Of a DNA stretch of 62,050 nucleotides, positions 14,458-43,635 are shown piece after piece. How positions within the stretch are numbered: the stretch's first letter is position 1; the number at the start of each line of letters is the position of its first letter. The stretch is taken from NCBI GenBank assembly GCA_038063195.1, contig JBBTVO010000011.1, positions 1 to 62,050 on the forward strand. Direction: 5' to 3'. Below the pieces are notes generated by a model that was not told the DNA's origin, made no database searches, and saw only the letters and a program-made list of their open reading frames with translations. The translations under genes were made by a program, and so were the position numbers. This stretch comes from Patescibacteria group bacterium. Its GTDB lineage: Bacteria; Patescibacteriota; Microgenomatia; Levybacterales; UBA12049.

Positions 14458-14466
14458 AAGGGCTAG

Positions 14467-24542: not shown

Positions 24543-24552
24543 AACAACATAA

Positions 24553-25402: not shown

Positions 25403-25496
25403 ACCTAAAAAAGGTAAAATGTGAATCAGGGTATAGTTACTAGCGTATAGCGTCCAGTTAACTATTTCCTAAACGCTATTTTCTAAACGCTGGACT

Positions 25497-25659: not shown

Positions 25660-25660
25660 C

Positions 25661-26098: not shown

Positions 26099-26110
26099 TT
26101 ACTAGTCGCT
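26081..26110. repeat. CTAG-rich repeat (contains ACTAGCCACTAG)
   Basis: ttagcaactagccactagttactagtcgct. Supplies the last codons and stop of the NUDIX gene. Inverted copy at 26933-26962. Confidence 0.8.
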
Positions 26111-26932: not shown

Positions 26933-26962
26933 TCTAGCTAACTAATCGCTAGTGGCTAGTCT
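26933..26962. repeat. CTAG-rich repeat, inverted copy (contains CTAGTGGCTAGT)
   Basis: tctagctaactaatcgctagtggctagtct. The 14-mer tcgctagtggctagt recurs at 32197-32210. Confidence 0.8.
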
Positions 26963-27009
26963 CTAAATTCCTTGACAAGGTCTTGAAAATATATCAGACT
27001 AAGGTAGGA

Positions 27010-28704
27010 ATGAAATTTTCTGCCCTAAAGTTACTTCTTTTTTTCTTTTCTATTTTCGTTCTTTTGGGATTTCTGGTAAAACCTGCTCAAGCCCAAACAG
27101 ATTACGAGACCCAGCCTTCTTCATCCGCTCCTACCTCCCAAACAACTACTGGCCATTACACTGCTCCGAACACTGAGGATGATGTACCGAACAATCTTCA
27201 CACATACTCTCAAAACGTGCTTATTGAGGTAATGGCGGCAGTTGCCTGCCAGCTTACAGGAATTGATCCCAGTAACCTTTCTCAAAAATGTCTGGGAATA
27301 AATCCTTCGACCGGAAAGATCGGGTATGCAGGAAGTGACGGAGGAGCGATAGGCTTTATGGGAAATATGATTGCGGTACTCTATGAACCTCCTGCACACG
27401 TCGGAGATTATGTTCAAAATCTTGCTCAGGATTTCGGAATAACCAATAAAACATACGCAAGACAGATAGATATCGTGCCTACTCTGAAAAAACCTTCAAC
27501 CACAGCAGATACCAGGGGAATTGGCTTTGAGGGATTAAGTCCTCTGCTGAATATTTGGAAAGCTTTTAGAGATATTGCTTATCTTCTATTTGTGCTCGTA
27601 TTTATTATATTGGGTGTTGCGATAATGCTGAGGGTAAAAATAGACCCCCGAACTGTAATGAGCATACAAAATCAAATACCCAAAGTTATCATTGGCATCT
27701 TGCTTGTGACATTTTCTTTTGCAATTGCAGGATTTCTTATTGACGTTATGTGGATTGCTATCTATCTTTTTTACGGTGCGTTCGCAAATATTAATATTGC
27801 ACCAGAGGGGGCACCCGCTGTCCTTCTTGATGTTTCTCAATTTAGCCCTCAAAACATAACTGGGACCACTCCTCTCGGGGCAATCGGAGGATTTGGAGGA
27901 ATAGGTGATTTATCAAGAGATGGTTCGGGTGCTATTAAAAGTGTTATCTCAAGCCTTTTCAGCAATAGTGCTGGATCAATTGTTGCTGCAATATTAGGAG
28001 GACTAATAGGAACTGCAAGCTGTGCCGCTACAGGACTTGGGCTCTTGATTTCACCTATCTGCGGTCTGATAGGAGCTGGAGCTGGGGCAGCTATTGGAGG
28101 GAGCTTAATATCCACCATTGGAGGATTTATTGCATTTATAATTATTGCGGTAGCACTTCTTTGGGCGCTTATCAGGGTTTGGTTTATTCTTCTTATGGCT
28201 TATATAATGATCCTACTTGATGTGGTATTTGCGCCATTCTGGATCATAGGAGGAATATTTCCCGGAAGCAAGATAAGCTTTAGTGGATGGCTTCGTGATC
28301 TCGTAGGTAACTTGGCTGCGTTTCCTGCAGTTTTTGTTATGTTCTTGCTTGGCAAAACTTTTATTGTCGCTTTTGCCAGCGGTCCGGGAGAAGCGTCTAA
28401 TTTCCTACCGCCATTTATAGGAAACCCTACCGATTACAAGTCGTTTGGAGCCCTGATCGGTCTTGGGATAATTCTTACGACTCCCAATGCTGTCAAGATG
28501 ATGAAGTCAGTCTTTGGCGCTCCACAAATCGATGTCTCTTCAATAGGTCAGGCAGTTAGCGCGGGGGCTGCGGCTCCGGGACGTCTAATTGGCGGAGGTG
28601 CATCTGCTATCTTTACTCCTCACTATAATAAAGAAGGTACTAAATTTGTTTATCCAGGTGGTCCACTTGGAAAAGCTATTAGGGCATTTGGTCTGGTACG
28701 TTGA
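27010..28704 (+). CDS. polytopic membrane protein, candidate VirB6/TrbL-like T4SS channel component
   Basis: Signal peptide MKFSALKLLLFFFSIFVLLGFLVKPAQA after an aaggtagga RBS. At least six hydrophobic helices and Gly-rich loops. Assignment rests on architecture and position only. Confidence 0.5.
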   Translation: MKFSALKLLLFFFSIFVLLGFLVKPAQAQTDYETQPSSSAPTSQTTTGHYTAPNTEDDVPNNLHTYSQNVLIEVMAAVACQLTGIDPSNLSQKCLGINPSTGKIGYAGSDGGAIGFMGNMIAVLYEPPAHVGDYVQNLAQDFGITNKTYARQIDIVPTLKKPSTTADTRGIGFEGLSPLLNIWKAFRDIAYLLFVLVFIILGVAIMLRVKIDPRTVMSIQNQIPKVIIGILLVTFSFAIAGFLIDVMWIAIYLFYGAFANINIAPEGAPAVLLDVSQFSPQNITGTTPLGAIGGFGGIGDLSRDGSGAIKSVISSLFSNSAGSIVAAILGGLIGTASCAATGLGLLISPICGLIGAGAGAAIGGSLISTIGGFIAFIIIAVALLWALIRVWFILLMAYIMILLDVVFAPFWIIGGIFPGSKISFSGWLRDLVGNLAAFPAVFVMFLLGKTFIVAFASGPGEASNFLPPFIGNPTDYKSFGALIGLGIILTTPNAVKMMKSVFGAPQIDVSSIGQAVSAGAAAPGRLIGGGASAIFTPHYNKEGTKFVYPGGPLGKAIRAFGLVR

Positions 28705-28706
28705 TC

Positions 28707-31688
28707 TTATTTTCTACCAGCAGCTCCCTTTGCTCCTGATATTTCATACGCCTCTGAGAATAGAGCTGTAAGTAAAAAGATAAAGAAAGACATTCCTCTT
28801 CTGGCTGACTGTGGAAGAAGCCCAAGCTGAAGTTTTTTCTCAAGTCCTTTCCAGAGCGTCGGATCGCCATTCATTAGAGTGTTTATTTCATCCGCCTTTG
28901 CTCTTGCAGTATCGCGGCTTATAGGCGTTGCTTGTGGACCAAAAATTCTTTCAATTTTTGATATAGGTCTTCTGAATATTCCTTTTGATATACCCAGGCT
29001 GTCTGACATTAGATCCTGAAGAGAAGCTATAAGAAATGTGCCTCTGGTGAACCTTATACACTTTGCTCTCCCAGGTTCTCCATTATACTGGCTTACTGCA
29101 TCACCAAAAGCTCTTGCTGCTTTGTCATTTTCCTCATCGTGCTCGACATTCTTCATAAATCCAACAAGACTCTGTCCTGCTTTCATTCCGTTTGCGGTAT
29201 CATTCCAGATTCTTACATAGGCATCTCCGCCCTTATCTGTCCCAAACATCTTTGAAAGCGGCACTATTCCTCTTTCTTTTTCCTCATCGCTTACCAACTC
29301 AAGCCTATCAAGCAATGCATCGTCAACGGTTAAAGTACGGTTATAAATATCCTCAAATTTAGTACTAGTCATAAGCTGATCAATCATTTTGTTATCCGTT
29401 ATATACTTTTGCATTGCTGCAAATATCCCTACTGCATCACTTACCGCTTCTTCACTACCCATTATCTTGAGAAAAGATGCTTTTTGTTCGTCAGTTAGAG
29501 TTGCTAAGTTAATTTGTTCAGGGGCCCACTTTTTCTTCCCAGCCGGGTTGCCTTCATCATCCAATACATCTATCTCTTTTCTAAAATATTCTTCCCTTAG
29601 CATTCTTATCGCCGCTCCGTATTTGTCTTTAAACTTGGTATATGCAGTGATCTTCCCCATATCAGGATGCTCTTCATCATTTTTGTTTATCAAACGGTTA
29701 TGTTCTTTTTCTTCGTCTGTAAGCCTCAGGTAGTCATCCACACCTTCAAGTTGTGCGTAAAGACCTTCCAGTTGGCCATTGTCTCTTTCTTTAAAAAGCC
29801 TTATTATTTCTTCCGGCCGATAGCCAGCTATTTTGTCCCATATTTGCGCCCTTGCTCTAACTCTTTCCCTACCTTCACCAATTCTAGGATCTTTAAGTCT
29901 TAAAAATAGCCCAAAATCCTGTGCATTTTCAAATCTGCTTTCTATTGACTTAAGTATTCCTTGTACCCTCCAGCTAGATGAGAAAAAGTCAGGAACAAGG
30001 AAAAGATCTCTAAAGAGCCTCGTCCCAAGCTCAATCTTATCCTCTCTGCTCATAGACCAGGTGCTTTTCCCTCTTGTTTTAAGATCTTCATCTGCCATGT
30101 CTATTTTCGTCTCATCTAAATACTTTCGTTCATCTTCAGTGTAGAGTCCGAATTTTGCTGTAAGAAGATCCTCAAGGTTATAGACATTAAGAGGCCCCCC
30201 CACAGCATCTGAAAAGTAAGCATCTGCGCCTTGCAAATGTTTTCCTCTTGCAGTAATAACTGCCTGACGCTGGGACGAAACGAAGACATCATAAGCTGTG
30301 CCTATTGCTCTTTTTATCTCTCCTTCCATCTCTGCCTGATTTTTTTCAGCGCTGAAGAAAATTCCAATCCCTCTTCCCGCCATATCTATCTGCTCTTTAA
30401 TTAGTTTATCCTGCAGCTTTGCTTGCATCTCAGGTGTTACATGGTTTCTCTCAGCCTTAAGTCTCTCGTTCTCAAGTAGCTCGTCAAATCTGTTAAACAT
30501 TGCCCCTACCTTCCCATCCTCAAAGCTCATACCTGTAAATAGTCCATGAACCTGAAGATTATAAGATTCCTGCTGTATTTGCTCTATGCTTCTATAACCT
30601 ATAGCTGATCGCATTTTTAATAAGTTAAGTCTGATTATTTGTAGTTTTTCAAATTCCTGTAAGCTTTTATTAAGCCTATCTGCTTCACCGGTATTACCTG
30701 TATCAGCTTCTACTGCCGCCTTTTCTTTAAGAATTCTCATAGCCTCACTTGCCTGTTGCAAAATACTGTTTACAATAGGTGAGTCAAATGCCTGTCCTTC
30801 GGCGGCGATACGGTATATAACGTCAAACTGACTATTCAACCAGGCTATTGGGTCTCTAGCGATAGCCTCTATTGCAGGCTGGCTTATGTAAAGACTGCTC
30901 GTTTCCCTTCTTCTCTCTTCCATGGCAGTTCTTTCATCAGCTCTAGTATTTGCTATCTTCTCATTTATTTTCTGCAATAGCATATCTCGATCAGCTTCTT
31001 GTCCTAGTGTAACTGTCATTGCTGCTACCTGATCGTGGATATCCGTGAGCCTATCTGAGGATACACCAAGACTTGCAAGATTATTATTGTATCGCTCGCC
31101 AATAGCCTGTATTCCTGCGTCTCCGATACCACTGATATCTATGGCGGACGGGCGTGGTCCTCCCGCAGCCATAGTCCCGGGGCCCATACTAAGCGGCTCT
31201 GGTTGTAAATGGCTGTTTGTTGCTCTCAGGATTAGTTTCCCAATATCCGCTCCTCTGTCTTGGAGCTCTGCTAACATTCCCCACCCTACCTGCTGGGCTT
31301 CAGAAGCAATACCTTCTCTCTCAAAACCTTCTGCATGTCCCATTGCTAGGCGTTGTCTCTCAGTAAGTAATTTTACGTAGGCGTCTTCAAGGTCAGCATC
31401 TGACCATTTATTAAGAGGGTTAATTTCTAACTTAGCTTTTAAATCTGCTGCGAATTCTTTAAGAATCGGGGTTTTTATATTCTCAAGGTCTGGTGATGCC
31501 CATTTTGGAGACTCGATAGGTGGCGTTTCCTGAATACTAGAACTTTTTATAGGTGGTCTCTCTGACTTACCTTGATCCATGAAAATATTTCCTCTTACAT
31601 CAAGTGTAGGAACAACCGGCGGGGTTGTCAAATCCGCCGAAGGCGAGACAGGCTTATTAAATTGTGCTCGAACTTCAAATTCTTTCAT
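28707..31688 (-). CDS. 993-aa tail-anchored protein of unknown function
   Basis: Long uninterrupted ORF. Pro-rich N-terminus, largely helical/charged body, single C-terminal TM helix (MSFFIFLLTALFSEAY). No NTPase or relaxase motifs seen. Confidence 0.7.
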   Translation of the reverse strand: MKEFEVRAQFNKPVSPSADLTTPPVVPTLDVRGNIFMDQGKSERPPIKSSSIQETPPIESPKWASPDLENIKTPILKEFAADLKAKLEINPLNKWSDADLEDAYVKLLTERQRLAMGHAEGFEREGIASEAQQVGWGMLAELQDRGADIGKLILRATNSHLQPEPLSMGPGTMAAGGPRPSAIDISGIGDAGIQAIGERYNNNLASLGVSSDRLTDIHDQVAAMTVTLGQEADRDMLLQKINEKIANTRADERTAMEERRRETSSLYISQPAIEAIARDPIAWLNSQFDVIYRIAAEGQAFDSPIVNSILQQASEAMRILKEKAAVEADTGNTGEADRLNKSLQEFEKLQIIRLNLLKMRSAIGYRSIEQIQQESYNLQVHGLFTGMSFEDGKVGAMFNRFDELLENERLKAERNHVTPEMQAKLQDKLIKEQIDMAGRGIGIFFSAEKNQAEMEGEIKRAIGTAYDVFVSSQRQAVITARGKHLQGADAYFSDAVGGPLNVYNLEDLLTAKFGLYTEDERKYLDETKIDMADEDLKTRGKSTWSMSREDKIELGTRLFRDLFLVPDFFSSSWRVQGILKSIESRFENAQDFGLFLRLKDPRIGEGRERVRARAQIWDKIAGYRPEEIIRLFKERDNGQLEGLYAQLEGVDDYLRLTDEEKEHNRLINKNDEEHPDMGKITAYTKFKDKYGAAIRMLREEYFRKEIDVLDDEGNPAGKKKWAPEQINLATLTDEQKASFLKIMGSEEAVSDAVGIFAAMQKYITDNKMIDQLMTSTKFEDIYNRTLTVDDALLDRLELVSDEEKERGIVPLSKMFGTDKGGDAYVRIWNDTANGMKAGQSLVGFMKNVEHDEENDKAARAFGDAVSQYNGEPGRAKCIRFTRGTFLIASLQDLMSDSLGISKGIFRRPISKIERIFGPQATPISRDTARAKADEINTLMNGDPTLWKGLEKKLQLGLLPQSARRGMSFFIFLLTALFSEAYEISGAKGAAGRK

Positions 31689-31772
31689 GCGCTGAGTGTA
31701 TAGGAAGAGCAGGCGGAGTACTTGACGTTTACATTACAGCTTCCTGACGATATACTTACAATAGAATTAAAC

Positions 31773-31817
31773 AGCAACTAGCAGGCTAGCAATTAGCCAC
31801 TAGTTATTAGGCACTAG
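31773..31817. repeat. CTAG-rich repeat upstream of a four-helix-bundle gene
   Basis: agcaactagcaggctagcaattagccactagttattaggcactag. Confidence 0.75.
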
Positions 31818-31821
31818 AATT

Positions 31822-32202
31822 ATGAAAATAACATCCTACAGAGAGCTGATTGTATGGCAGAAATCAATGGATTTAGCAACTTTAATATTTAACATAACTA
31901 AGTCTTTCCCTGCTTCTGAGCAGTATGGACTTACAAATCAAATAAGAAGGGCTTGTTTTTCAATCCCATCAAACATAGCAGAGGGATTTTGTAGAGGCGG
32001 TAGGCCAGAATTCAGACAATTCCTGCAAATCGCATTTGCATCCGGAGCAGAGCTTGAAACAGAACTGGAAATAGCTAAAAACATTGGAATATTACAAGAT
32101 AAAGATTATAAAATTTTAATTTCAAAGCTTGATGAAATCATGCGAATGCTGAATAAAATGATCAGAACTGTTAGAGATAATCAGAAACAATCTAGTCGCT
32201 AG
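31822..32202 (+). CDS. four-helix-bundle protein (23S rRNA intervening-sequence protein family)
   Basis: YRELIVWQKSMDLATLIF...FPASEQYGLTNQIRRACFSIPSNIAEG is the family signature. Confidence 0.85.
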   Translation: MKITSYRELIVWQKSMDLATLIFNITKSFPASEQYGLTNQIRRACFSIPSNIAEGFCRGGRPEFRQFLQIAFASGAELETELEIAKNIGILQDKDYKILISKLDEIMRMLNKMIRTVRDNQKQSSR

Positions 32203-32221
32203 TGGCTAGTTGCTAATCGCT
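32191..32221. repeat. CTAG-rich repeat downstream of the four-helix-bundle gene (inverted relative to 31773-31817)
   Basis: tctagtcgctagtggctagttgctaatcgct contains CTAGTGGCTAGT, the reverse complement of ACTAGCCACTAG. Confidence 0.8.
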
Positions 32222-33604
32222 ATGGAAGCTACACATTTCGAATCTCTATATCCAGCACAGTCCCGCTTTGACGAGATTGAGAAAATACTTAAATTTGCCA
32301 GAGAAGGGAAATCTTCTCAGCTTGTGGGGCTTCCCGGAGTAGGTAGGTCAAATACTCTTGGGCTTTTAAGCTACAACAAGAATATAAGAAAGAAACATTT
32401 GGGCGAAAATCAGAAATGGTTTCATTTTGTCTCCTGCGATTTTTCAGAAATCCGCAAGAAGCCTGTCTCTGATGCGATGAAATTTATATTCCTGCGCCTT
32501 GCTGATTCGCTTCGCGAAAGAAAAATATTAAAAAACGCAGAATCTGAATTCGCAGGAGAAGGCTCTTTTGAGCAGATTGATAAAATTTTTAAAGAATCTG
32601 CCGCGACAAATGACGAGATGGTTCTTTTTCAGGGTCTCAAGCGCGCAATAGACTTCCTTTGTATTGAAAAAGAGCTGACAATTGTATTCTTGTTCGACAG
32701 ATTTGAAGAATATATTCCAATGCTTACTCCCGAGTTTTTTGCAAACTTAAGGGTCTTGAGAAACCGCGCAAAGTACAGATTCTCAGTAGTATTTTCTCTT
32801 AATAGACCCCTTGAAGAACTTATCGAGCCCATACTTTTTGCCGATTTCTATGAATTTCTTGCAGATAATATTGTCTATCTTCCTATTTTGGATAAACCCG
32901 GCTTAGATTTCAGGATTTCTTATCTCGAAAAAGTGACAATGAAACAATTGAACAATGAAACAATTGAACAAGTCCTTTTACTAACCGGCGGACACGGGAA
33001 GCTTACAAGACTCAGTCTGGAAACAATATTAGCAACTAGCGACTGGCCACTAGCAACTAGTGAAAAACTGCAAGAGTTTCTGTTGGAGCAAAAAAGCGTA
33101 AAAGCAAGTCTATACGAGATATGGATATCGCTAATTCCGGAGGAACAATTACTGCTAGCGTCTAGAGAAAAGCGTTTAGCGTTTAGTTTTTCAGGTAGTT
33201 CCTACTTAGAGAAAATTGGACTTCTTAAAAATGAAGTAATAACTATTCCCCTTTTTGAAGAATTTATCTCAACCCTACTTCGTCAAGACTCCGGAAGGGC
33301 ACAGCAAATATCTTTTGATCAGAACACAAATGAGATCAAAATGGGCGAAACAGCTCTGTCTGATTCTTTAACTTCATCTGAATTCAAGCTTCTTAAATTT
33401 CTTCTTGATAATCCAGACAAACTAATCGAACGGGAAGAAATAATTAAGGCCGTATGGAAAGATGAAAAGACCACAGAAGGAGTCACAGACCAGGCACTTG
33501 ACCAGCTTATATTCCGCCTTCGCAAAAAAATTGAAGTTGATCCAAATAATCCTGTCCACCTCCAAACCTTAAAAGGCAAGGGGATAAGGTTTAGCAATCG
33601 CTAG
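32222..33604 (+). CDS. P-loop NTPase-like domain fused to an OmpR/PhoB-type winged-helix DNA-binding domain
   Basis: Walker-A-like GLPGVGRSN (Arg where Lys is expected), Walker-B-like IVFLFDRFEE. C-terminal LTSSEFKLLKFLLDNPDKLIEREEIIKAVW...ALDQLIFRLRKKIE...LQTLKGKGIRF matches trans_reg_C. The ATG at 32222 is preferred over the TTG at 32210. Confidence 0.75.
   Translation: MEATHFESLYPAQSRFDEIEKILKFAREGKSSQLVGLPGVGRSNTLGLLSYNKNIRKKHLGENQKWFHFVSCDFSEIRKKPVSDAMKFIFLRLADSLRERKILKNAESEFAGEGSFEQIDKIFKESAATNDEMVLFQGLKRAIDFLCIEKELTIVFLFDRFEEYIPMLTPEFFANLRVLRNRAKYRFSVVFSLNRPLEELIEPILFADFYEFLADNIVYLPILDKPGLDFRISYLEKVTMKQLNNETIEQVLLLTGGHGKLTRLSLETILATSDWPLATSEKLQEFLLEQKSVKASLYEIWISLIPEEQLLLASREKRLAFSFSGSSYLEKIGLLKNEVITIPLFEEFISTLLRQDSGRAQQISFDQNTNEIKMGETALSDSLTSSEFKLLKFLLDNPDKLIEREEIIKAVWKDEKTTEGVTDQALDQLIFRLRKKIEVDPNNPVHLQTLKGKGIRFSNR
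33029..33062. repeat. CTAG-rich repeat embedded in-frame in the NTPase-wHTH gene
   Basis: ttagcaactagcgactggccactagcaactagtg encodes LATSDWPLATS. Same word family as 26081-26110. Confidence 0.75.
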
Positions 33605-33714
33605 ACTTTTAAATTTTCAATTTTTAATTTTAATTGAAAACTTCAAATTTTAAATTTCAAATTAAATTCCGTCGCCTATTGACGTAGGACGACCAATAAG
33701 TATACGATAATTGT

Positions 33715-34980
33715 GTGAGAAAGTTTCTGCTCTTCATTCTTTCTTTTTATATATTCCTCTCTTTTTTCTATACAAAAACTTTCGCAAGCTATACTGTAAA
33801 GGCTGATCCTCCAGTGACATCTGCTAATCCATTTAACGGACAACCTACCCACAAATCTGCATTGCAAATATTTAAAGACTTAAGTCTTTCAGCTCAATCC
33901 CCTATTATTACCGAGAACACAAACACAGTCACAATTAACTTCGAAAACCTTGGACAAAATAAAGAATATGTAGTTTGGGCAGGAAAAGAGGATTTCCTTG
34001 GCAAATATTCTTCTTCGGCAGACAGAAAGCTAGATTTTGCAGTCTGTGGCTGGGGAAGTATACTTAAATTAGCTGACAAAGACAATCCTGGTACAGGAAA
34101 ATGTGCAGATGATGATTATTTCCACGCTGGAACTTATACTCTTCAAATATGTACTGACGAGGAATGTAATAACGTTGTGGAGTCTGTACCCCTTTCTGTG
34201 GCTCGTTACTATCCTGATTTTATAATTAGCGAGAAAGATCCTGTTACAGTAACTTTAATTGGATTAAGAAAACGAAACGACGACGGAGGACGAAATAATT
34301 ACTCAATAGAAATCTCCCGTATGTCAGACCTTGGTAAAGAAATTGAAGAACACTGCACCACAGTTAAGCCTGACGGAACCAATGATCCCCCAGTTACTTT
34401 CAAATCTCTTGAGCCTGGCAATTATGAACTTAGAATTAATGAAAGGCAGAAGGAGGGGAATTCATTTACCCGCGCATTTGGCAGTGATTGTAATACTGGT
34501 TTTACTTATTACTCTGTCCGGCTGTTTGTTGGATTAGATGGAGCAATAAAGGTAGAAGAGGTTATCGCTGATCCATATGGTCAGGATGTCGGAGGACAAG
34601 AGCGAAAAGATTATAAAGCTCCGAATGCGCCATGCGAAGTAGATCAGAAAACCGGAAAAGGAAAGTGTCCTACCGGTCTTGGTATATCTATAAATACAAG
34701 CCCAGGTGGCTTCGTCAGGTCTGTATTTGGGCTTATCTTAAGTATCGCAGGCGGAATTGCGCTTCTTCTTATAATATACTCCGGATATCAGCTAATTACA
34801 TCTCAAGGCACTCCTGAAAAGCTTGAAGCAGCCAGACAGCAGCTTGTTTCAGCAATTGTCGGACTCTTGTTTATAATTTTCGCACTGGTTATTCTTCAGG
34901 TAATAGGGGTAGATATTTTGCAAATTCCTGGTTTTGAACCAAGCACTACGTCTCATTCCCAAAAATCAGCGGCACCTTAA
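33715..34980 (+). CDS. secreted protein with large N-terminal domain fused to a C-terminal VirB2/TrbC-like T4SS pilin module
   Basis: GTG start. Signal peptide ...FFYTKTFA. The C-terminal ~90 aa (LILSIAGGIALLLIIYSGYQLITSQGTPEKLEAARQQLVSAIVGLLFIIFALVILQ) is paralogous to the three small pilins downstream. Confidence 0.7.
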   Translation: MRKFLLFILSFYIFLSFFYTKTFASYTVKADPPVTSANPFNGQPTHKSALQIFKDLSLSAQSPIITENTNTVTINFENLGQNKEYVVWAGKEDFLGKYSSSADRKLDFAVCGWGSILKLADKDNPGTGKCADDDYFHAGTYTLQICTDEECNNVVESVPLSVARYYPDFIISEKDPVTVTLIGLRKRNDDGGRNNYSIEISRMSDLGKEIEEHCTTVKPDGTNDPPVTFKSLEPGNYELRINERQKEGNSFTRAFGSDCNTGFTYYSVRLFVGLDGAIKVEEVIADPYGQDVGGQERKDYKAPNAPCEVDQKTGKGKCPTGLGISINTSPGGFVRSVFGLILSIAGGIALLLIIYSGYQLITSQGTPEKLEAARQQLVSAIVGLLFIIFALVILQVIGVDILQIPGFEPSTTSHSQKSAAP

Positions 34981-34983
34981 ATT

Positions 34984-35310
34984 ATGATTGTAAAAAATGT
35001 TGATTATTTAGCACTTAAACTAGGGGACACAGAAATTGGTGCGCCGGGAGGAATCCCAACTGGGGGTACAGGCACAGGTCAAAAAATAATCCAAACAGGA
35101 ATAACACTTTTGTTTATATTTGCCATCATTCTTGCCCTTTTCTATATCGTGCAGGGTGGAATTCAGTGGATAGTATCAGGCGGAGATAAACAGCAGATAG
35201 ATCAGGCAAGACTGAGAATTACATATGCAATAGTAGGTCTTGTTATAGTTCTTGCCGGGTTTTTCATAGTAAATCTAGTTTCCGGAATTTTCAAGATAAA
35301 TTTTTTCTAG
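34984..35310 (+). CDS. VirB2/TrbC-like T4SS pilin paralogue
   Basis: 108 aa. Two TM helices flanking a conserved WIVSGGDKQQIDQAR loop. Confidence 0.7.
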   Translation: MIVKNVDYLALKLGDTEIGAPGGIPTGGTGTGQKIIQTGITLLFIFAIILALFYIVQGGIQWIVSGGDKQQIDQARLRITYAIVGLVIVLAGFFIVNLVSGIFKINFF

Positions 35311-35361
35311 CAAAAGTAGCTCTTGACAAAGTAAAAAATTCATAATAGCATTAACTTAAGC

Positions 35362-35790
35362 ATGAAGAAATTTATTCCAGCCATTGCCCTCTCAACATAT
35401 CTTCTAACTCCCGCTGTTGCTTTTGCTCAAACGAGTGTATCAACATGCCCGCCTGGTCAATTTAATGTCCTTTGTGGTTTTACAGCTAGCAGCTTTGGAA
35501 GCGTAGTAAGTACTCTTGTCAGTGTACTTTTTGTAATTGCAGTAGTAATTGCATTGGTATTCTTAATCTGGGGAGGTATAAAATGGATTCTCTCAGGCGG
35601 AGATAAAAGTGCTGTTGAGAGCGCAAGGAATACTATAGTTGCGGCAGTAGTCGGATTGATAATAGTCTTCCTGTCTTACTTTATATTGAATATCGTTCTC
35701 GGATTCTTTGATATTAAGCTTGCAGACCTTAAGATTCCCAAAATAAACCCGGCTGCACCAATTGAAACGCCTGAAACGCCTTCTTTGTAA
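35362..35790 (+). CDS. VirB2/TrbC-like T4SS pilin paralogue
   Basis: 142 aa. Signal peptide ...PAVAFA, then two TM helices flanking WILSGGDKSAVESAR. Confidence 0.7.
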   Translation: MKKFIPAIALSTYLLTPAVAFAQTSVSTCPPGQFNVLCGFTASSFGSVVSTLVSVLFVIAVVIALVFLIWGGIKWILSGGDKSAVESARNTIVAAVVGLIIVFLSYFILNIVLGFFDIKLADLKIPKINPAAPIETPETPSL

Positions 35791-35837
35791 TCTCTTCTAG
35801 TCTTGCCTTTTTTTTCCTTCCCTGCTAATCTAGTTAT

Positions 35838-36149
35838 ATGCCATGGACAGACTGTCTTTCCCCAGAAGGGGTAGCAACCCTTAACTGCATCCCTATTGTT
35901 TTTAGTAACATCGTTAATTGGGCGCTTATACTATCAGGTACGACTGCTTTGTTCTTCGTAATAATCTCGGGCACGAGATACATAAGGTCCGGAGGAGATC
36001 AGGAGAAAATTAAAGGCGCAAGGGAGACTCTGACTTATGCAATAATAGGGTTGGTTATTATCCTACTTTCGTTCGGCATAATAAATTTCATAAGCTATGT
36101 TACAAACGTCGAATGTATAAAGCAATTTGGTTTTGGAAACTGCACATGA
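35838..36149 (+). CDS. VirB2/TrbC-like T4SS pilin paralogue
   Basis: 103 aa. Two TM helices flanking YIRSGGDQEKIKGAR. Confidence 0.7.
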   Translation: MPWTDCLSPEGVATLNCIPIVFSNIVNWALILSGTTALFFVIISGTRYIRSGGDQEKIKGARETLTYAIIGLVIILLSFGIINFISYVTNVECIKQFGFGNCT

Positions 36150-36153
36150 AGCA

Positions 36154-36350
36154 GATACTAGATACTAGTTGTTAGATATTAGCATTTAGTTAATAATTTC
36201 CAGACTATTATCTAGTATCTATTACCTATTAACTGTCAGGTTTTCACAGCCAGCTTCAATTCTCAGAAATTTTGACACATTTTGATTATCTTGCATTGAT
36301 ATTTTTCACATAGTTAAATAGATAATAGATACTAGTTACTAGATATTAGT
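36154..36350. repeat. TAG/ACTAG-rich repeat blocks upstream of the second four-helix-bundle gene
   Basis: gatactagatactagttgttagatattagc...tctagtatctattacc... and tagataatagatactagttactagatattagt. The terminal 14-mer tactagatattagt is inverted at 36722-36735. Confidence 0.75.
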
Positions 36351-36358
36351 AAATACAA

Positions 36359-36733
36359 ATGGCAAGTATTAAATCATACAAGGACTTAATTGTATGGCAA
36401 AAATCTATGATTTTAGTAAAAGAGGTTTTTGCTCTAACAGCAAGATTTCCAAAATCTGAACTATATGGAATTATTTCTCAAATCAGAAGATCCGCTATAA
36501 GTATTCCATCCAATATCGCCGAAGCGTTTGGCCGAAGATCTGTTAGGTCAACTGCTCAATTTTATTCAATTGCACTCGGCTCAGCGCTGGAGCTTGAAAC
36601 GCAGCTTCTGATATCACGTGACCTTAAGATGGCGGATTTGCAATATTTTAAACCAAGCGATGACTTATTATTGGAAGTTTGCAAAATGTTGAATTCAATG
36701 ACTGGGAAATTAAAGTTCTCAACTAATATCTAG
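36359..36733 (+). CDS. four-helix-bundle protein (23S rRNA intervening-sequence protein family)
   Basis: YKDLIVWQKSMILVKEVF...FPKSELYGIISQIRRSAISIPSNIAEA. Paralogue of 31822-32202. Confidence 0.85.
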   Translation: MASIKSYKDLIVWQKSMILVKEVFALTARFPKSELYGIISQIRRSAISIPSNIAEAFGRRSVRSTAQFYSIALGSALELETQLLISRDLKMADLQYFKPSDDLLLEVCKMLNSMTGKLKFSTNI

Positions 36734-36750
36734 TATCTAATTACTAATAA
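36722..36750. repeat. inverted copy of the ACTAGATATTAGT repeat, overlapping the stop of the four-helix-bundle gene
   Basis: actaatatctagtatctaattactaataa. Its reverse complement ends ...gatactagatattagt. Confidence 0.75.
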
Positions 36751-36756
36751 CTATTT

Positions 36757-37956
36757 ATGGAAAATCATCCAATACCTCAGGACATTACTGGCTTTCAATT
36801 TAAGCTGATTGGAGATATGACAATCAAACAATTTGCTTATCTTGCTGCGGGCATAATACTTGGCTGGATTACTTATATCCTGCCCATATTTATAATTATA
36901 AAAATCCCGATACTTGTTACTTTTGTAGGACTTGGTGTTGCGGCCGCATTTTTGCCAATTGAAGGAAGACCATTTGATGTAATGATAGGGAATTATTTTA
37001 AGGCGCTCTTGAGCCCTACTCAATATATATACCAAAAAATCGGGGGACATATCTGGTTCCCGGATACACCTATTCAGAATCAGAAAGCTGCCCAAAGTAT
37101 TGCTCCAAGCGATAATGCCGAGTCCTCGAGAAAGCTTAAGGAGTTCTTAAAATCATTACCCCAGAAGCCCAAAAATAAGCTGGATGAAAAGGAAATGAAT
37201 TTCTTAAATTCCCTGGGATTCTCTCCTACTGCTGTCTCAGTTCCAGTTGTAAATTCCGGAAACAGTGCATATGAAAAAATTATATCCCATCATGACCCGA
37301 TAATTCCTCTGCAGATACATCCTGAAGAAAAAAAAGAGCCTGATAAGAATCCTGAGCCAAAACTTAATCACGACGAAACACAACCCGGGAAAGAACCCGA
37401 AAAAGCAAAACTGCCTGAAAAAGTTCAGGAAAGTCTTCCTCAGTATAGTATCGCCCAACAGGAACTACTTTCTCAAAAACAAAACCTTGAAAATCAGGTT
37501 CTTGAGCTAAGAAATAAAATGAGTGCGCAAAACCAAAATATTACCACATCGGACGCTTCAGCTGTAAAACAGGAGAGCCAGACGGTAAGAACAATACCAA
37601 GAAACATGGGAAAAACAGCAGGACTTCCCTTCATGTCTGACGTGCCAAATCTCATAATGGGTATTATTAAAGGGCCGCGGGAAAATCCTCTTTCAAATAT
37701 TCTGGTGGAGGTAAAAGACACAAGCGGCAATCCCGTAAGAGCCTTTAAGACCAATGCTCTTGGCCAATTTTCCTCAGCGACCCCGCTTGGAAACGGAACA
37801 TATACGATATCGTTTGAAGATCCCAAAAGCGAAAATAAATTCGATATAATCGAGATAAAAGCCAATGGAGACGTGCTTATGCCGCTTGAAGTCATTTCCC
37901 TTGACCAAAGAGAAGAATTAAGAAGGTCACTATTTAATCCGGCACAAAAATCATGA
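36757..37956 (+). CDS. PrgI-like (VirB3-analogue) membrane protein with C-terminal carboxypeptidase-regulatory-like beta-sandwich
   Basis: N-terminus IPQDITGFQFKLIGDMTIKQFAYLAAGIILGWITY plus a second TM helix resembles the PrgI family of Gram-positive T4SS. C-terminal ILVEVKDTSGNPVRAFKTNALGQFSS...GTYTISFED. Confidence 0.6.
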   Translation: MENHPIPQDITGFQFKLIGDMTIKQFAYLAAGIILGWITYILPIFIIIKIPILVTFVGLGVAAAFLPIEGRPFDVMIGNYFKALLSPTQYIYQKIGGHIWFPDTPIQNQKAAQSIAPSDNAESSRKLKEFLKSLPQKPKNKLDEKEMNFLNSLGFSPTAVSVPVVNSGNSAYEKIISHHDPIIPLQIHPEEKKEPDKNPEPKLNHDETQPGKEPEKAKLPEKVQESLPQYSIAQQELLSQKQNLENQVLELRNKMSAQNQNITTSDASAVKQESQTVRTIPRNMGKTAGLPFMSDVPNLIMGIIKGPRENPLSNILVEVKDTSGNPVRAFKTNALGQFSSATPLGNGTYTISFEDPKSENKFDIIEIKANGDVLMPLEVISLDQREELRRSLFNPAQKS

Positions 37957-38618
37957 GTAAAACTGCCCAAAAGAAAAATTCAACCACTCAGAAATTTATA
38001 GAAATCGACCACATCGAAGAAGATATTGCACTTCTGTCCGGAAAGCACGCCTGTCTTATAATAGAAGTGAATGCGACTAACTTCGCGCTTTTGTCCAAAG
38101 AAGAACAGGATACCAAAATATTTTCCTATGCTTCGCTTCTCAACTCCCTCTCCTTTCCCATACAGATTTTCATAAGAAGCAAGAAGCTTGATATATCTGC
38201 TTATCTTAAGCTTCTTGAGGCTCAGGCCTCTCAATCACAAAACCACCTCCTTTCATCCCAGATACGTCTTTATAGAGACTTTATTAAAGAGCTTGTTAAA
38301 GTAAATACGGTTCTTGATAAAAAATTCTACATTGTCCTTTCTCACTCATCTCTTGAAAGAGGCGTTCATAATGCAAAAGCTACAGAGAAAAAGAATATTC
38401 CTGCAGATTCTTTCGCTTCAACTGCAAAGACAACGCTTCATTCAAAAGCAGAATCAGTTCTCTCCCAGCTCGCAAGATTGAACCTGCGGGCCAAAACACT
38501 TCAGAAGGAAGAGCTAATAAAGCTTTATTACGAAATTTATAATGGCAGTACTGTTGAGACCAATCAAATATCTGATGATATAAGTACGCCAATAGTCAGA
38601 GGAGGAAATCAGGCATGA
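37953..38618 (+). CDS. T4SS-associated protein resembling a VirB4 N-terminal domain (no ATPase motifs)
   Basis: 221 aa. FIEIDHIEEDIALLSGKHACLIIEVNATNFALLSKEEQ...SLSFPIQIFIRS pattern. Translationally coupled on both sides (ATGA overlaps). Confidence 0.5.
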   Translation: MSKTAQKKNSTTQKFIEIDHIEEDIALLSGKHACLIIEVNATNFALLSKEEQDTKIFSYASLLNSLSFPIQIFIRSKKLDISAYLKLLEAQASQSQNHLLSSQIRLYRDFIKELVKVNTVLDKKFYIVLSHSSLERGVHNAKATEKKNIPADSFASTAKTTLHSKAESVLSQLARLNLRAKTLQKEELIKLYYEIYNGSTVETNQISDDISTPIVRGGNQA

Positions 38619-40618
38619 GTCTTTTTGGGAACAAGAAACAGCCGCAGGAAATAAAAAATCCGACCGTAACTTACCCTGCTCAGCAGCCGGCTCCAAAACC
38701 TGCGGCAATAAATTCTCAGCCACAGCCGCAGCCGCCTGCAAAATCACTTCCGGGAATTGAGAAGCTTGAAAAAGGAATATCATCATTAAATGATATTATT
38801 GCCCCATCATCTATTGAAGTGGACTTTAATTTTATAAGAGTCGGGGATCATTACTACAAGACATTTTTTATAATTGGTTACCCCCGGTTCGTCTCTCCAA
38901 ACTGGCTATCGCCCCTTATTGATTTTGACCATTCAATGAATATCTCAATGTTTTGCTATCCTGCTTCATCAAACGACGTCTTATCAGATTTAAGACGGAA
39001 AATTGCCGAGATGGAAGCAACTCTATCTTCTCAGGCAGAAGAAGGAAAAATCACAGACCCGAAAGTTCAGGCTGCGCTTGAGGACGCGCTTTCTCTTCAG
39101 GAACAGCTAGCAAAAGGAGTCGAGAGATTTTTCCAGTTCGGGCTTTATATAACTCTTTTTTCGGAAAACCTCCAGGATCTTGAGGACTCGGCAAGGAGAT
39201 TAACATCAACGCTCTCCTCAATCCTTCTGATACCCAAGATGACAACGCTTCAGATGGAAGACGGTTTCAAGTCCACAATTCCTGCGGGGCTTGACAGGCT
39301 TTATATAACAAGGAACATGGACACTACATCTCTTGCCTCAACTTTTCCGTTTACCTCAGCAACTCTTACTCAGGACAAAGGCATAATGTACGGAATAAAT
39401 GAGCAGAATGGCTCACTAATAGTCTTTGACAGATTTTCTCTCGAGAATGCCAATGAAATCGTATTGGGAAAATCAGGAGCAGGAAAGTCATATCTTATTA
39501 AACTTGAGGCTCTTAGGCAATTTATGTTTGGCACTGAAGTCATAATAATAGACCCCGAAGGTGAATATGAAGCTCTTTCAAAAACTCTGGGCGGTGAACA
39601 CGTATCATTTACCCCTTCTGACCCTATAAAAATAAATCCATTTGATCTTTCAGGGCTTTATGAAGAAGGAGAAAATGAGCTGGGGCTTAAAATCCTTTCT
39701 CTGCATGGACTCTTGCGGATAGTTATGGGAGAGCTTGGGGCTGCGGAAGATGCGATACTTGACCGCGCGCTGGTTGAAACATATCGGCAAAAAGGAATTA
39801 CAGCAGAGCCGTCAACGCAGAAAAATCAGCCTCCTCTTATGGAAGACTTATATAAGGTTTTGCTTGGAACTGAGGATGCGACGGCAAGAGGCCTGGCCTT
39901 GCGGCTTGAGAAGTTTATTAAAGGAAGCTTAAACGGAATATTCAATCAGCAGTCAAATTTTGATATAACTAATCCATTTACGGTTTTTTCAATAAAGGCG
40001 CTTGAGGAGGAACTGCGGCCAATTGCGATGCATATAATCCTTGACTTCGTCTGGACGAGAGTAAGAAAGAGTCTCAAGAAAAGATTATTAATTTTGGATG
40101 AGGCATGGTATATTATGAAATACGAAGATTCCGCAAGCTTTGTGTATGGAATTGCCAAGCGGGCAAGAAAATACTACCTTGCCCTAACTACGGCAACGCA
40201 GGATGTGCAGGATTTCCTGTCCACCGACTACGGAAAAGCAGTCCTTTCAAACTCATCAATTCAGATGCTTCTTAAGCAAAGTCCCACTGAAGTCGACTTG
40301 ATAAGTAAGGAGTTTTATCTCTCAGAAGGAGAGCGTGAGCTCTTGCTTTCTGCTGATGTTGGAGAAGGACTCTTCTTCGCAGGCCAAAGTCATGTAGTAA
40401 TAAAAGTTATCGCAGCGCCATTTGAGCATACAATTATAACATCTAATCCTCAAGAAATTTTAAAACAGAGAGAAGATGCAGGACAAGCAGGCGAGGCGCC
40501 TACTCAGCCTCAAGCTCCGGTCTCAGCTATTGAACAGATTTCAAAAGAGCCGGCACCCCAAAGCCCTCCAAGTCAACCGCAAGATTCAGCTACACCTCCT
40601 GCGTCTGGCGGGTCGTAG
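38615..40618 (+). CDS. virB4: VirB4/TraC-like T4SS ATPase
   Basis: 667 aa. Walker A GKSGAGKSY, Walker B LLILDEAW. The N-terminal domain pattern (IRVGDHYYKTFFIIGYPRFVSPNWLSPLI) is typical of VirB4 homologues. Pro/Gln-rich termini. Confidence 0.85.
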   Translation: MSLFGNKKQPQEIKNPTVTYPAQQPAPKPAAINSQPQPQPPAKSLPGIEKLEKGISSLNDIIAPSSIEVDFNFIRVGDHYYKTFFIIGYPRFVSPNWLSPLIDFDHSMNISMFCYPASSNDVLSDLRRKIAEMEATLSSQAEEGKITDPKVQAALEDALSLQEQLAKGVERFFQFGLYITLFSENLQDLEDSARRLTSTLSSILLIPKMTTLQMEDGFKSTIPAGLDRLYITRNMDTTSLASTFPFTSATLTQDKGIMYGINEQNGSLIVFDRFSLENANEIVLGKSGAGKSYLIKLEALRQFMFGTEVIIIDPEGEYEALSKTLGGEHVSFTPSDPIKINPFDLSGLYEEGENELGLKILSLHGLLRIVMGELGAAEDAILDRALVETYRQKGITAEPSTQKNQPPLMEDLYKVLLGTEDATARGLALRLEKFIKGSLNGIFNQQSNFDITNPFTVFSIKALEEELRPIAMHIILDFVWTRVRKSLKKRLLILDEAWYIMKYEDSASFVYGIAKRARKYYLALTTATQDVQDFLSTDYGKAVLSNSSIQMLLKQSPTEVDLISKEFYLSEGERELLLSADVGEGLFFAGQSHVVIKVIAAPFEHTIITSNPQEILKQREDAGQAGEAPTQPQAPVSAIEQISKEPAPQSPPSQPQDSATPPASGGS

Positions 40619-40636
40619 TTTAATTATTATTAATTT

Positions 40637-41887
40637 ATGGCACAAAATAATCAAGAAAATGGGCTTGATGATGCTAGAAGACTAGGAGCTGCTTTGCTCC
40701 AGAATGCAGCAAGAAGCGCTGTAAGCGGTTTTGCGGTACCTATTGCAATAGTAATTGCAGTTATTTTGATCGTAACTTTTATTATTCTGCTTGGCGGAGG
40801 CGGTGGGGCAACCCCCGGCCTTGCCAACAACAACACTCCTCCAGTGGGAGACAATCCCGGAAGCCCCCCTGTACCAGCTGGCCCCAATCTAAATTACACA
40901 ATTAAATTCAGGGATACAACTGTCGTTCCTGTAAAAAGCACATCTATCGATGCAATAAAACAGCAATTTCCGAAAGCACAAGTTCAGTATTACGATATAA
41001 TCGTGGATCGCGCAATACAAGCAGGCTGGAATCCAGCTTTTGTTCTTACTCTCTGGATAGAAGAAACAGGCGCTTCCCAGAACACAAAAATAGCCGCAGG
41101 CGGAGCCGGAGTTTTACCAGCGTCTAATGGACACCTTGGGTGCGCTCCATGGGAATTACAGACTATAAACGAAAGTCTTGATTGTCTTTTCAAGAATTTC
41201 TCGGGATATTCAAATGATCAGTTTGAGAAGTTTATGAGGACATATTCAGGAGAGAGCTCCGATTCTGGTCCTTTCGTAAACAACCCAAATTTCCCCGGGA
41301 ATGTTTTGAAATTTTATTCAATGCTCGTCCCTTCAGGCCCAGGAGCCGCAACGGGAACAGGCGGGACGACAGCCGGAATTCAAGTTTCCTGTCCCATCAA
41401 TAAAACCAACAACACCGCTTATTTTACCTGTGGTACAGCTACGAATCCGCGAAATGGCTGCGGACATGGTGTCCCACCTGTATATCCACCGTGCACGCAA
41501 CCACCATACGCATTCTGCCCTTTCTCCGAACAGCTTAAGAATTCTGTAGACATTCAGTTGTCACCCGGAAATGGATCAAATCTACCCGTTTATCTTCCGA
41601 CTATCAACGGGGCATCGCAGCAATGGACGTTTACGGGAGGCACATATATTGACAGCGGTAACGCTTCAAAACAGGCATATGAAACTAATTCTGGAGGACA
41701 TAATATAATCGCAGTATTTACGCATCTCAACCAACGAACTCCTCTTGCAGGAAGTAGGGCAACTTACTCTTCGGGAACAAAGGTTGGCACGACTTTTGCC
41801 GGAAAAAACCACCTTCATGCAGAAATCGTAATTGATGGAATCCCAACAGACCCAATAACTGGAGTTTCAATGTGTACGGGAAGTTAG
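40637..41887 (+). CDS. membrane-anchored putative cell-wall hydrolase (VirB1-like role) with C-terminal M23-peptidase-like motif
   Basis: N-terminal TM helix, Gly/Pro linker, central region AIQAGWNPAFVLTLWIEETG, C-terminal GKNHLHAEIVIDGIPTDP resembling the HLHxE motif of M23 peptidases. Confidence 0.5.
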   Translation: MAQNNQENGLDDARRLGAALLQNAARSAVSGFAVPIAIVIAVILIVTFIILLGGGGGATPGLANNNTPPVGDNPGSPPVPAGPNLNYTIKFRDTTVVPVKSTSIDAIKQQFPKAQVQYYDIIVDRAIQAGWNPAFVLTLWIEETGASQNTKIAAGGAGVLPASNGHLGCAPWELQTINESLDCLFKNFSGYSNDQFEKFMRTYSGESSDSGPFVNNPNFPGNVLKFYSMLVPSGPGAATGTGGTTAGIQVSCPINKTNNTAYFTCGTATNPRNGCGHGVPPVYPPCTQPPYAFCPFSEQLKNSVDIQLSPGNGSNLPVYLPTINGASQQWTFTGGTYIDSGNASKQAYETNSGGHNIIAVFTHLNQRTPLAGSRATYSSGTKVGTTFAGKNHLHAEIVIDGIPTDPITGVSMCTGS

Positions 41888-41902
41888 ATATACTTATAGA
41901 CA

Positions 41903-42394
41903 ATGAGCAGAATTATTAATTATCGTTTTTTACTTCTAGCTTTTTTTGCCCTACTTTTCTTAGGATTAATAACAATAATCTTCTTAAGTATAACAAAAAA
42001 GCCAAAGCAGGTGGAAACATATCCATCCGATCTTTCAAGCGAAGACATAAGAAGAATTACACCAATTGATTCTCAAGATAAAAGAAAACCGTTAAGAATC
42101 TTGGCTGAAACAAAATCAGAAGCCAATTTTGGGATTCAAAAAGCATTTGTGGTACATTTTTCTGAAAAACCTTCGCCTTTTTACTTTTCTTATTCAATTA
42201 CGCCTAATGCAACTATAAGTGCAACTATCGATGAGAACAATATGGTTCTTATGCCCATCCCGCGCTGGGAATCAGAAACAGAATACAAGCTGACTGTAAA
42301 TAAAGATACAAGAGACGTATACGGCAATCTATTGGATAGGAATTACGAATTCAGGTTTACAACTATTCGCGATGAAATCTATGAAATCTATTGA
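41903..42394 (+). CDS. membrane-anchored Ig-like (SbsA/Big-type) domain protein
   Basis: 163 aa. TM helix then a single beta-sandwich-like domain ending YEFRFTT. Confidence 0.5.
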   Translation: MSRIINYRFLLLAFFALLFLGLITIIFLSITKKPKQVETYPSDLSSEDIRRITPIDSQDKRKPLRILAETKSEANFGIQKAFVVHFSEKPSPFYFSYSITPNATISATIDENNMVLMPIPRWESETEYKLTVNKDTRDVYGNLLDRNYEFRFTTIRDEIYEIY

Positions 42395-43501: not shown

Positions 43502-43635
43502 CTTGAATTACTTTCTATTAATTTGTAGTTGTAGTAGTTTATAGGGAAAAGCGGAAAAAAGCAAGCGTAAAGCCTTGTAGGAAATGTTGAAAACAAGTGT
43601 ATAAAAATAAGGATAAGTTGTGGATATCCCGGAAG

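Follow-up and report, generated by a model that had tools for sequence, protein, structure and literature searches.

A type IV secretion-like gene cluster beside dnaN and dnaA in Levybacteria probably belongs to the vertically inherited Patescibacteria-clade system

The genes at 27010-42394 of contig JBBTVO010000011.1, a metagenome-assembled contig of 62,050 bp that was analysed whole (hereafter the window) and whose relatives are Levybacteria (class Microgenomatia), probably encode the Levybacteria form of the 'Patescibacteria-clade' type IV secretion system (T4SS), a chromosomal and vertically inherited system that goes back to monoderm conjugation machinery (mating-pair formation type FATA, MPF-FATA) and has been re-purposed. 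The predicted component set comprises a split VirB4 motor, a PrgI/VirB3-like anchor, a VirB6-like protein, four pilins, a tethered hydrolase and a regulator. The Candidate Phyla Radiation (CPR), or Patescibacteria, accounts for much of bacterial diversity, and its members apparently live attached to other microbes. Few of their conserved envelope systems could explain how they exploit their hosts, and a T4SS-like machine, essential in the sole genetically tractable species, is among those few. An earlier note on this DNA had proposed a secretion or attachment apparatus fitting an episymbiotic life. The same co-option has been published (PMC10633639, PMC12102498, PMC12857230), and our main finding is thus correct but already known. 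The window leaves the overall picture unchanged, gives a clear view of the Levybacteria version and supplies some details that can be tested.

In Southlakia epibionticum, T4SS genes and a pilin array were reported to be essential for epibiotic growth, and neither a coupling protein nor a relaxase was recognised in that system (Wang 2023, PMC10633639). A survey of Patescibacteria (Quinonero-Coronel 2025, PMC12102498) described T4SSs related to MPF-FATA in which relaxases are rare, TrsD is the commonest partner of VirB4 and PrgI also occurs. The same survey reported VirB2-type pilin genes in arrays of 2-11, above all in Microgenomatia, a frequent proximity of virB4 to dnaA/dnaN, rnpA and rpmH in Microgenomatia and Paceibacteria, and a scarcity of VirB6 homologues in Microgenomatia. 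A FEMS review of 2025 treats the Patescibacteria systems as a recognised T4SS type (PMC12857230). The earlier note had called the architecture uncharacterised, which is out of date, as it had been published (PMC10633639, PMC12102498, PMC12857230).

Open reading frame (ORF) calling and profile searches placed all genes of the cluster on the plus strand except one, which encodes a 993-aa protein. They recovered in place every cluster gene listed in the earlier note, and added the 993-aa gene, the regulator and two cassettes carrying 23S_rRNA_IVP genes. The assignment of the VirB4 ATPase (667 aa, 38615-40618, +; CD1110 / MPF-FATA type) is secure, as its motifs and its Pfam, NCBIfam and PDB matches all agree. 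It carries GKSGAGKSY at residue 285 and LLILDEAW at residue 491, matched Pfam P-loop_TraG at 2.7e-27, and scored 379.7 bits against a cut-off of 325 for the NCBIfam family 'VirB4-like conjugal transfer ATPase, CD1110 family'. Its top PDB sequence match was 4ag5 (4.9e-46), named by its depositors 'type IV secretory pathway VirB4 components-like protein'. All 8000 scored VirB4 matches had E <= 1e-10; the best 120 of these 8000 were 70-91% identical, and the ones with a named source were labelled Levybacteria, Patescibacteria group or 'bacterium'. The closest plasmid-borne relatives, from Streptomyces, Bacillales and Clostridia, showed 30-38% identity.

Immediately upstream, a gene for a 221-aa TrsD-like protein (37953-38618, +) overlaps both the PrgI-like gene and virB4 by 4 nt. 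The 221-aa protein aligned to positions 97-239 of the 894-position NCBIfam VirB4_plasma model (E 4e-11), as expected for the VirB4 N-domain-like protein that had been noted before, and the 667-aa ATPase covered positions 292-893 of the same model; a weak Pfam TraC_F_IV match was also seen for the smaller protein. Judging from these alignments, the two proteins would together be a split VirB4, with the 221-aa part corresponding to the 'TrsD' of the 2025 survey (PMC12102498). The PrgI-like protein (399 aa, 36757-37956, +; Pfam PrgI 4.1e-8), previously proposed as a VirB3 analogue, passed the Pfam threshold with 34.1 bits against a cut-off of 27 over residues 5-92. It is an extended form, in which a low-complexity linker joins the N-terminal PrgI domain, with its transmembrane (TM) hairpin, to an Ig-like (CarboxypepD_reg-like) domain at the C-terminus (Pfam CarboxypepD_reg 1.4e-5, under its cut-off).

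The pilin genes lie 5' of this motor core. A large pilin of 421 aa (33715-34980, +; Pfam 1.3e-9) is followed by three small VirB2-type pilin genes (34984-35310, 35362-35790 and 35838-36149, all +; Pfam T4SS_pilin). Against the T4SS_pilin cut-off of 26.6 bits, the large pilin scored 38.4 bits and the second and third small pilins 36.1 and 41.9 bits, respectively; the first small pilin reached 26.4 bits, 0.2 below the cut-off. The four VirB2/TrbC-like pilin modules that had been proposed were thus recovered as three above threshold and one marginal, so that the pilin assignments, together with that of VirB4, held in profile searches. The modules were 35-47% identical to one another, and all four share two hydrophobic helices flanking a GG-x-x-W/Y-I-x-SGGD-x(7)-AR motif. 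The small pilins have two TM helices apiece and also showed a weak Pfam match to TrbC and sub-threshold NCBIfam matches to the Mbov_0395 pilin-like family. The large pilin starts with a signal peptide, continues with a variable extracellular domain of ~300 aa and ends in a VirB2-type module (residues 332-397). Among relatives, this C-terminal module was 57-70% identical, and the N-terminal part varied in length and was at most ~36% identical. The first pilin is therefore a conserved pilin module joined to a hypervariable N-domain, and in this it resembles an adhesin.

To compare the locus among relatives, we used one genome per GTDB species and mapped the window proteins by tblastn onto 80 loci picked by VirB4 similarity, of which 59 were Levybacteria-like and 21 came from more distant Microgenomatia; the contig held both VirB4 and dnaN in 44 and 17 loci of these two groups, respectively. 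The PrgI-like, TrsD-like and virB4 genes were contiguous in 72-74 of the 80 loci (TrsD-like gene, 74/80; full-length PrgI-like homologue immediately 5' of TrsD-VirB4, 72/80). Wherever the contig extended far enough, including chromosomal contigs of 0.4-1.1 Mb, dnaN/dnaA stood beside this core. Median identities in the Levybacteria-like loci were 75% for VirB4 (59 loci), 60% for DnaA, 53% for DnaN and 59% for YidC, and VirB4 identity exceeded DnaA identity in 38/38 paired genomes, although VirB4 identity is perhaps somewhat inflated by the choice of loci. VirB4 identity also correlated with that of DnaA, DnaN and YidC (Spearman 0.83-0.88). Conservation above the level of DnaA together with correlated divergence indicates strong purifying selection and vertical descent, and the cluster thus appears to be old, vertically inherited and strongly constrained, and not an integrative and conjugative element (ICE).

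Transfer genes were sought with a Pfam scan of all ORFs of 70 aa or more across the 62-kb contig (E <= 1e-3). No family of relaxases (MOB) or of type IV coupling proteins (T4CPs) matched any of these ORFs, in agreement with the earlier failure to see a VirD4-like protein or a relaxase in the window. CD1115/TraD signals came only from VirB4 itself, at background level (E 0.02-0.09). The absence of both gene types from the contig, the fixed synteny with dnaN/dnaA in every locus whose contig extends that far, and a divergence that tracks housekeeping genes also bore out the proposal that the cluster is chromosomally fixed and not conjugative. An ordinary ICE or a decayed conjugative element near the origin, with the serine recombinase at 16929-18254 as its integrase, might be suspected, since VirB4 belongs to a conjugation-ATPase family and since the stretch 1-10 kb upstream of the locus carries the serine recombinase, tRNA genes and genes for defence or toxin-antitoxin systems. 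However, the island that carries the recombinase is bounded by two tRNA-Ser genes and stops (~25.7 kb) before the T4SS locus, which lacks a recognisable relaxase and T4CP anywhere on its contig. The core remains syntenic with dnaN/dnaA even in lineages whose VirB4 is only about 55% identical, and VirB4 evolves more slowly than DnaA and in step with housekeeping genes. In addition, the stop codon of the last gene of the cluster touches that of dnaN (TGA followed by TCA, zero gap), which agrees with the adjacency noted before; since the two stop codons abut, there is no room for an att-type boundary on the dnaN side. The ICE explanation is largely refuted, and we regard it as very improbable.

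The polytopic protein at the 5' end of the cluster (564 aa, 27010-28704, +) is probably VirB6-like. The NCBI start is the ATG at 27010, with an alternative TTG start at 26983. A signal peptide, an N-domain outside the cell and some 6 TM helices or more make up the protein, which agrees with its earlier description as polytopic; the VirB6-like identity proposed at the same time is probable only. The protein itself had no direct match in Pfam or NCBIfam, and three of its 49 homologues matched Pfam TrbL/VirB6 (best 1.3e-7). Its AlphaFold2 (AF2) model had a predicted local distance difference test (pLDDT) score of 70, and the top four Foldseek matches of the model in the PDB were R388 TrwI/VirB6 chains (probability 0.93-0.99, E about 0.03-0.05). 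The gene lies ~10 kb upstream of the core, and a VirB6-like gene was kept upstream of the locus in 14 loci.

A gap of 2 nt separates the VirB6-like gene from the 993-aa gene (28707-31688, -), with which it is arranged tail to tail. The 993-aa protein is predicted to be soluble and to lack a P-loop, and it had no match in Pfam, NCBIfam, PHROGs or the PDB in single-sequence and profile searches. Its family is a small one, counting 101 clusters in a set of 1.84 billion representatives. In searches of the loci with hidden Markov models, the two genes were found tail to tail and upstream of the regulator in every case in which the 10-kb flank sufficed; loci L003, L011, L025, L026 and L027 of the comparative set show this convergent pair.

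Between virB4 and dnaN, the window carries a membrane-anchored two-domain wall hydrolase (416 aa, 40637-41887, +) and a bitopic Ig-like protein (163 aa, 41903-42394, +). The hydrolase had no Pfam match, and its assignment comes from an AF2 model (pLDDT 80) in which the C-domain has a predicted LytM/M23 fold. Foldseek matches of the model included Csd1/2, ShyA, LytM and lysostaphin (E 2e-4 to 1e-3, probability 1.0), the whole protein aligned to phi29 gp13, a two-domain wall-degrading enzyme, over 329 columns, and weak fold matches to AtlE, SagB and LytB made the N-domain faintly similar to a GH73 glucosaminidase. The layout would thus be an N-terminal TM helix, a lysozyme/GH73-like domain and a LytM/M23-fold domain, and the TM helix, the modelled fold and the phi29 gp13 alignment together support the membrane-anchored wall hydrolase proposed earlier. 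Homologues keep the N-domain with an invariant W-x-E-E-x-G, and their C-domain is swapped for CHAP, canonical M23 or C39_2. The Ig-like protein, whose earlier designation was upheld, has one TM helix and scored 27.6 bits to Pfam Big_5 against a cut-off of 23.6 (5.2e-6); by sequence it is Ig-like and not NTF2-like.

Big_5 proteins occupied the same slot in 8 relatives. Across the 44 Levybacteria-like loci with both VirB4 and dnaN, the slot held 1-5 plus-strand genes, encoding SLT, SLT_3, CHAP, M23, C39_2, Amidase_2/3, glucosaminidase, NlpC/P60, M15, M74 and YkuD domains as well as Ig-like proteins. The slot between virB4 and dnaN thus changes fast, and host specificity may be encoded there. The diversity of wall-hydrolase domains 3' of virB4 across species looks host-directed, and it could be taken as a sign of a system for effector export, by which proteins, possibly including the slot hydrolases, are delivered onto or into the host bacterium. 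Such delivery has been speculated upon (PMC11665869, PMC10633639), and Bordetella Ptl and Brucella VirB lack a T4CP homologue (PMC12857230). However, the N-terminal TM anchor of the hydrolase fits Sec-dependent insertion and tethering better than T4SS-dependent export, and no T4CP, known secretion signal or effector candidate was found at the locus. Effector export is possible but the less likely course, and it overlaps the reading of a re-purposed Patescibacteria-clade T4SS rather than excluding it.

For the working of this T4SS, we favour a VirB4-powered pilus or contact apparatus serving the epibiotic lifestyle. Going by the established roles of VirB2, VirB3, VirB4 and VirB6 in other T4SSs, VirB4, seated on a platform of the PrgI-like and VirB6-like proteins, would extract pilins from the membrane and polymerise them into a short pilus or tube. 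For its pilus, Agrobacterium needs VirB4 but can do without the coupling protein, and a machine that lacks a T4CP can therefore still assemble one. In well-studied systems, VirB2, VirB3, VirB4, VirB6 and VirB1 without a T4CP are enough for pilus biogenesis and not for substrate recruitment. The fast-evolving ~300-aa domain of the large pilin, together with the changing slot hydrolases, may fit the apparatus to the surface and wall of the host bacterium. The machine would serve obligate host contact, and it might pass protein outward or host material inward without conjugative DNA transfer. It would be controlled by the regulator in the locus, and its origin-proximal site may raise gene dosage, as suggested in the survey (PMC12102498).

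Inward transport has been proposed for Patescibacteria, which lack nucleotide and lipid biosynthesis (PMC11665869, PMC12857230), and the locus could accordingly be read as an import system for DNA, nucleotides or other host macromolecules, comparable to Helicobacter ComB or archaeal Ced. VirB4 gave a sub-threshold match to the CedB model (1.3e-14, 53.7 bits), and a ComFC-like gene lies on the same contig (14765-15460). However, 53.7 bits against a CedB cut-off of 700 reflects shared VirB4/HerA ancestry only, CedD reached 20.6 bits against a cut-off of 600, and no ComEC, ComB-specific or Ced-specific partner genes were found in the locus. Moreover, in Southlakia comEC is dispensable and the T4SS is essential (PMC12857230). 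We consider a dedicated import system unlikely. More doubtful still is a host-piercing import conduit, in which a VirB2-type tube with a hypervariable large-pilin tip would be guided through the host wall by species-specific hydrolases, host nucleotides, DNA or lipids would flow in, and the 993-aa protein would act as a cytoplasmic gatekeeper in place of the coupling protein.

Several points weigh against a re-purposed T4SS that works as a contact apparatus, in addition to the bias in VirB4 identity named above. No Microgenomatia organism has experimental evidence for such a system, and no pilus has been seen. The genome could have a T4CP on a different contig, as VirD4 homologues are distant from virB4 in many Patescibacteria (PMC12102498). 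The VirB6 call rests on weak fold matches (E about 0.03, TM-score 0.35-0.40) and on three of 49 family members, and no family match to a VirB8/PrgL-like protein was obtained within the locus in Pfam or NCBIfam. The hydrolase lacks the first histidine of the M23 HxxxD motif, which makes its endopeptidase activity uncertain, and it may act on the cell's own wall only, as VirB1 does.

Compared with known systems, the locus most resembles the Patescibacteria-clade T4SS as described in the excerpted accounts of Southlakia (SEML1_0006-0019) and of the survey (PMC12102498). The shared features are VirB4 with adjacent TrsD-like and PrgI/VirB3-like genes and a VirB6-like gene, a divergent array of VirB2-type pilins, wall hydrolases 3' of virB4, and a chromosomal position near dnaA/dnaN, as in Microgenomatia, with no relaxase or T4CP nearby. 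A need for the system in epibiotic growth is known for Southlakia only (PMC10633639), and the conservation of VirB4 above the level of DnaA lends it indirect support here. Other features of the window were not found in those excerpts: the VirB6-like gene ~10 kb upstream and tail to tail with the 993-aa gene, the P-loop and OmpR-type regulator within the locus, the ~300-aa hypervariable domain on the first pilin, the convergence of the operon on dnaN, the two cassettes inside the operon that encode intervening-sequence (IVS) proteins, and the fast-changing wall-hydrolase slot between virB4 and dnaN. We regard as modest increments the divergent VirB6 homologue (from family and fold evidence), its 993-aa partner, the regulator and the hypervariable pilin domain, and likewise the hydrolase slot, the head-on orientation of the operon and the inversion of dnaA-dnaN described below.

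The C. difficile CTn2 / CD1110 type is one of the four MPF-FATA prototypes of the survey (PMC12102498). Like it, the window encodes a VirB4 above the CD1110-family cut-off, PrgI and a two-domain VirB1-like hydrolase, and outer-membrane core proteins are absent. A polytopic VirB6/PrgH analogue would be a further point in common, going by weak family and fold matches. Unlike MPF-FATA systems, it has no relaxase or T4CP that could be found on the contig and no recognised VirB8-like protein, its VirB4 is split, and it is chromosomally fixed, essential-like and not mobile, with VirB4 30-38% identical to plasmid-borne relatives. MPF-FATA systems are also normally without VirB2-type pilins, and the four pilin modules found here are a known distinguishing trait of the Patescibacteria variant. 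The best NCBIfam matches of the pilins and the TrsD-like protein were to the Mycoplasma ICE (Mbov_0395 pilin-like protein and Mbov_0397 VirB4), which likewise combines a monoderm VirB4 with a pilin-like small membrane protein; however, all these matches were under the curated cut-offs, and the mycoplasma genes sit in a mobile ICE. Bordetella Ptl and Brucella VirB share the lack of a VirD4-like coupling protein homologue (PMC12857230), but both are of the diderm MPF-T kind and have VirB7/9/10 cores.

The position of the locus allowed its orientation relative to replication to be considered. The last gene of the operon meets dnaN (42395-43501, -; Pfam), which is followed by dnaA (43636-44976, -; Pfam) and, divergent from dnaA, by rpmH-rnpA-yidD-yidC from 45019 (ORF and Pfam scan). 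The operon converged on dnaN in all 44 Levybacteria-like loci holding VirB4 and dnaN, whereas the 21 more distant loci (VirB4 about 55% identical) had the order VirB4, dnaA, dnaN on one strand. The dnaA-dnaN unit (42395-44976) is inverted in Levybacteria relative to loci L060, L064, L073 and L075, and the orientations of the T4SS core and yidC are unchanged. The opposite orientation between constant flanks indicates that the unit was inverted between those flanks. The cumulative G-C curve of the contig had its minimum at 44,653, and the mean skew of plus-strand genes was +0.01 to the left of this point and +0.12 to its right. This minimum would place the replication origin at the 5' end of dnaA, in which case the 10.5-kb T4SS operon would be transcribed toward the origin, head-on to the replication fork. 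Around dnaA we found just two DnaA boxes, each with one mismatch, and counting them did not pin down oriC. A scan for promoters and terminators gave few usable signals, and Rfam matched nothing beyond tRNAs and the tmRNA.

The regulator (32222-33604, +) has an N-terminal P-loop-like domain with GLPGVGRSN and VFLFDRFEE and a C-terminal winged helix of the OmpR/PhoB type (Pfam Trans_reg_C 5.5e-18). Its NCBIfam and PDB matches were confined to residues about 345-460, and the N-terminal domain had no family match in NCBIfam and no PDB match. Full-length copies occur in 24 Levybacteria-like loci, and their median identity is 57%. From its domains and its retention in the locus, it is probably a one-component regulator dedicated to this cluster. 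Within the regulator ORF, a copy of a CTAG-rich repeat (33020-33060) lies in frame and encodes ...LATSDWPLATS...; this segment was present in L001, L003, L004 and L013 and absent or shorter in L008, L010 and L037.

The two cassettes each carry a gene for a 23S_rRNA_IVP four-helix bundle (cassette 1, 31822-32202, +, Pfam 1e-37; cassette 2, 36359-36733, +, Pfam 6.3e-35). Cassette 1 is flanked by CTAG-rich inverted repeats at 31777-31817 and 32192-32217, and cassette 2 by inverted repeats at 36315-36350 and 36722-36757, with more arms at 36153-36230. The arms of cassette 2 are 36 nt long and 83% complementary, and its RNA fold had a z-score of -3.7. The position of the 23S_rRNA_IVP cassette differed among relatives, and the IVP genes of L004, L005 and L013 were likewise flanked by 23-31-nt inverted repeats of short tandem units. 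In the window, copies of the CTAG-rich repeat lie at 26074-26106, 26941-26973, 31777-31817, 32192-32217, 33020-33060, 36153-36350 and 36722-36757; the family gave 9 matches against 0.13 expected by chance, all within 26.08-36.34 kb. Such inverted repeats bracket three cassettes, namely a PIN/Phd toxin-antitoxin pair and both 23S_rRNA_IVP genes. The bracketed cassettes look like mobile insertions, similar to the IVSs of rRNA and here placed in an mRNA operon, and their stems could serve as RNase III sites at which the T4SS transcript is cut. No relevant literature on IVS-protein cassettes was found by searching. Sub-threshold bAvd-like matches of the IVS proteins led us to consider a diversity-generating retroelement, which was rejected because the locus has no reverse transcriptase and no template/variable repeat pair was found.

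Upstream of the T4SS locus and separate from it, a genomic island (16595-25661) lies between two tRNA-Ser genes (16595-16683 and 25573-25661) that are 83% identical. It carries the large serine recombinase (16929-18254), a CDP-alcohol phosphatidyltransferase, a GT4 glycosyltransferase, a TOTE conflict-system primase-helicase (21307-23454) and a Fic-MerR protein (23529-24542). The ComFC-like protein (14765-15460, -), with a double zinc ribbon and a phosphoribosyltransferase domain, is encoded ~12 kb upstream of the T4SS, and beside it lies a LAGLIDADG-domain ORF (15541-16704, -) whose 5' end as called overlaps the tRNA-Ser gene. On the other side of the locus, ~10 kb from dnaA, a 246-aa protein (54240-54980, -) has a helix-turn-helix like that of DnaA domain IV and no ATPase domain (Bac_DnaA_C 7.5e-6, under the Pfam cut-off). 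In the comparative set, record titles such as 'uncultured Gammaproteobacteria' or 'uncultured Pseudomonadales' of L001, L009, L011-L015 and others were contradicted by gene content, and these labels are apparently wrong. Repeated segments were also found next to the tmRNA gene (14097-14457, -): a motif that overlaps the tmRNA match at its low-coordinate end is found again at 13194-13239 and 10847-10892, and paralogous genes for 230/245-aa proteins lie at 10163-10900 and 13372-14064, with BRO-N and GIY-YIG genes between them. This arrangement of the region 10100-14460 suggests that two insertions occurred in tandem at the tmRNA gene.

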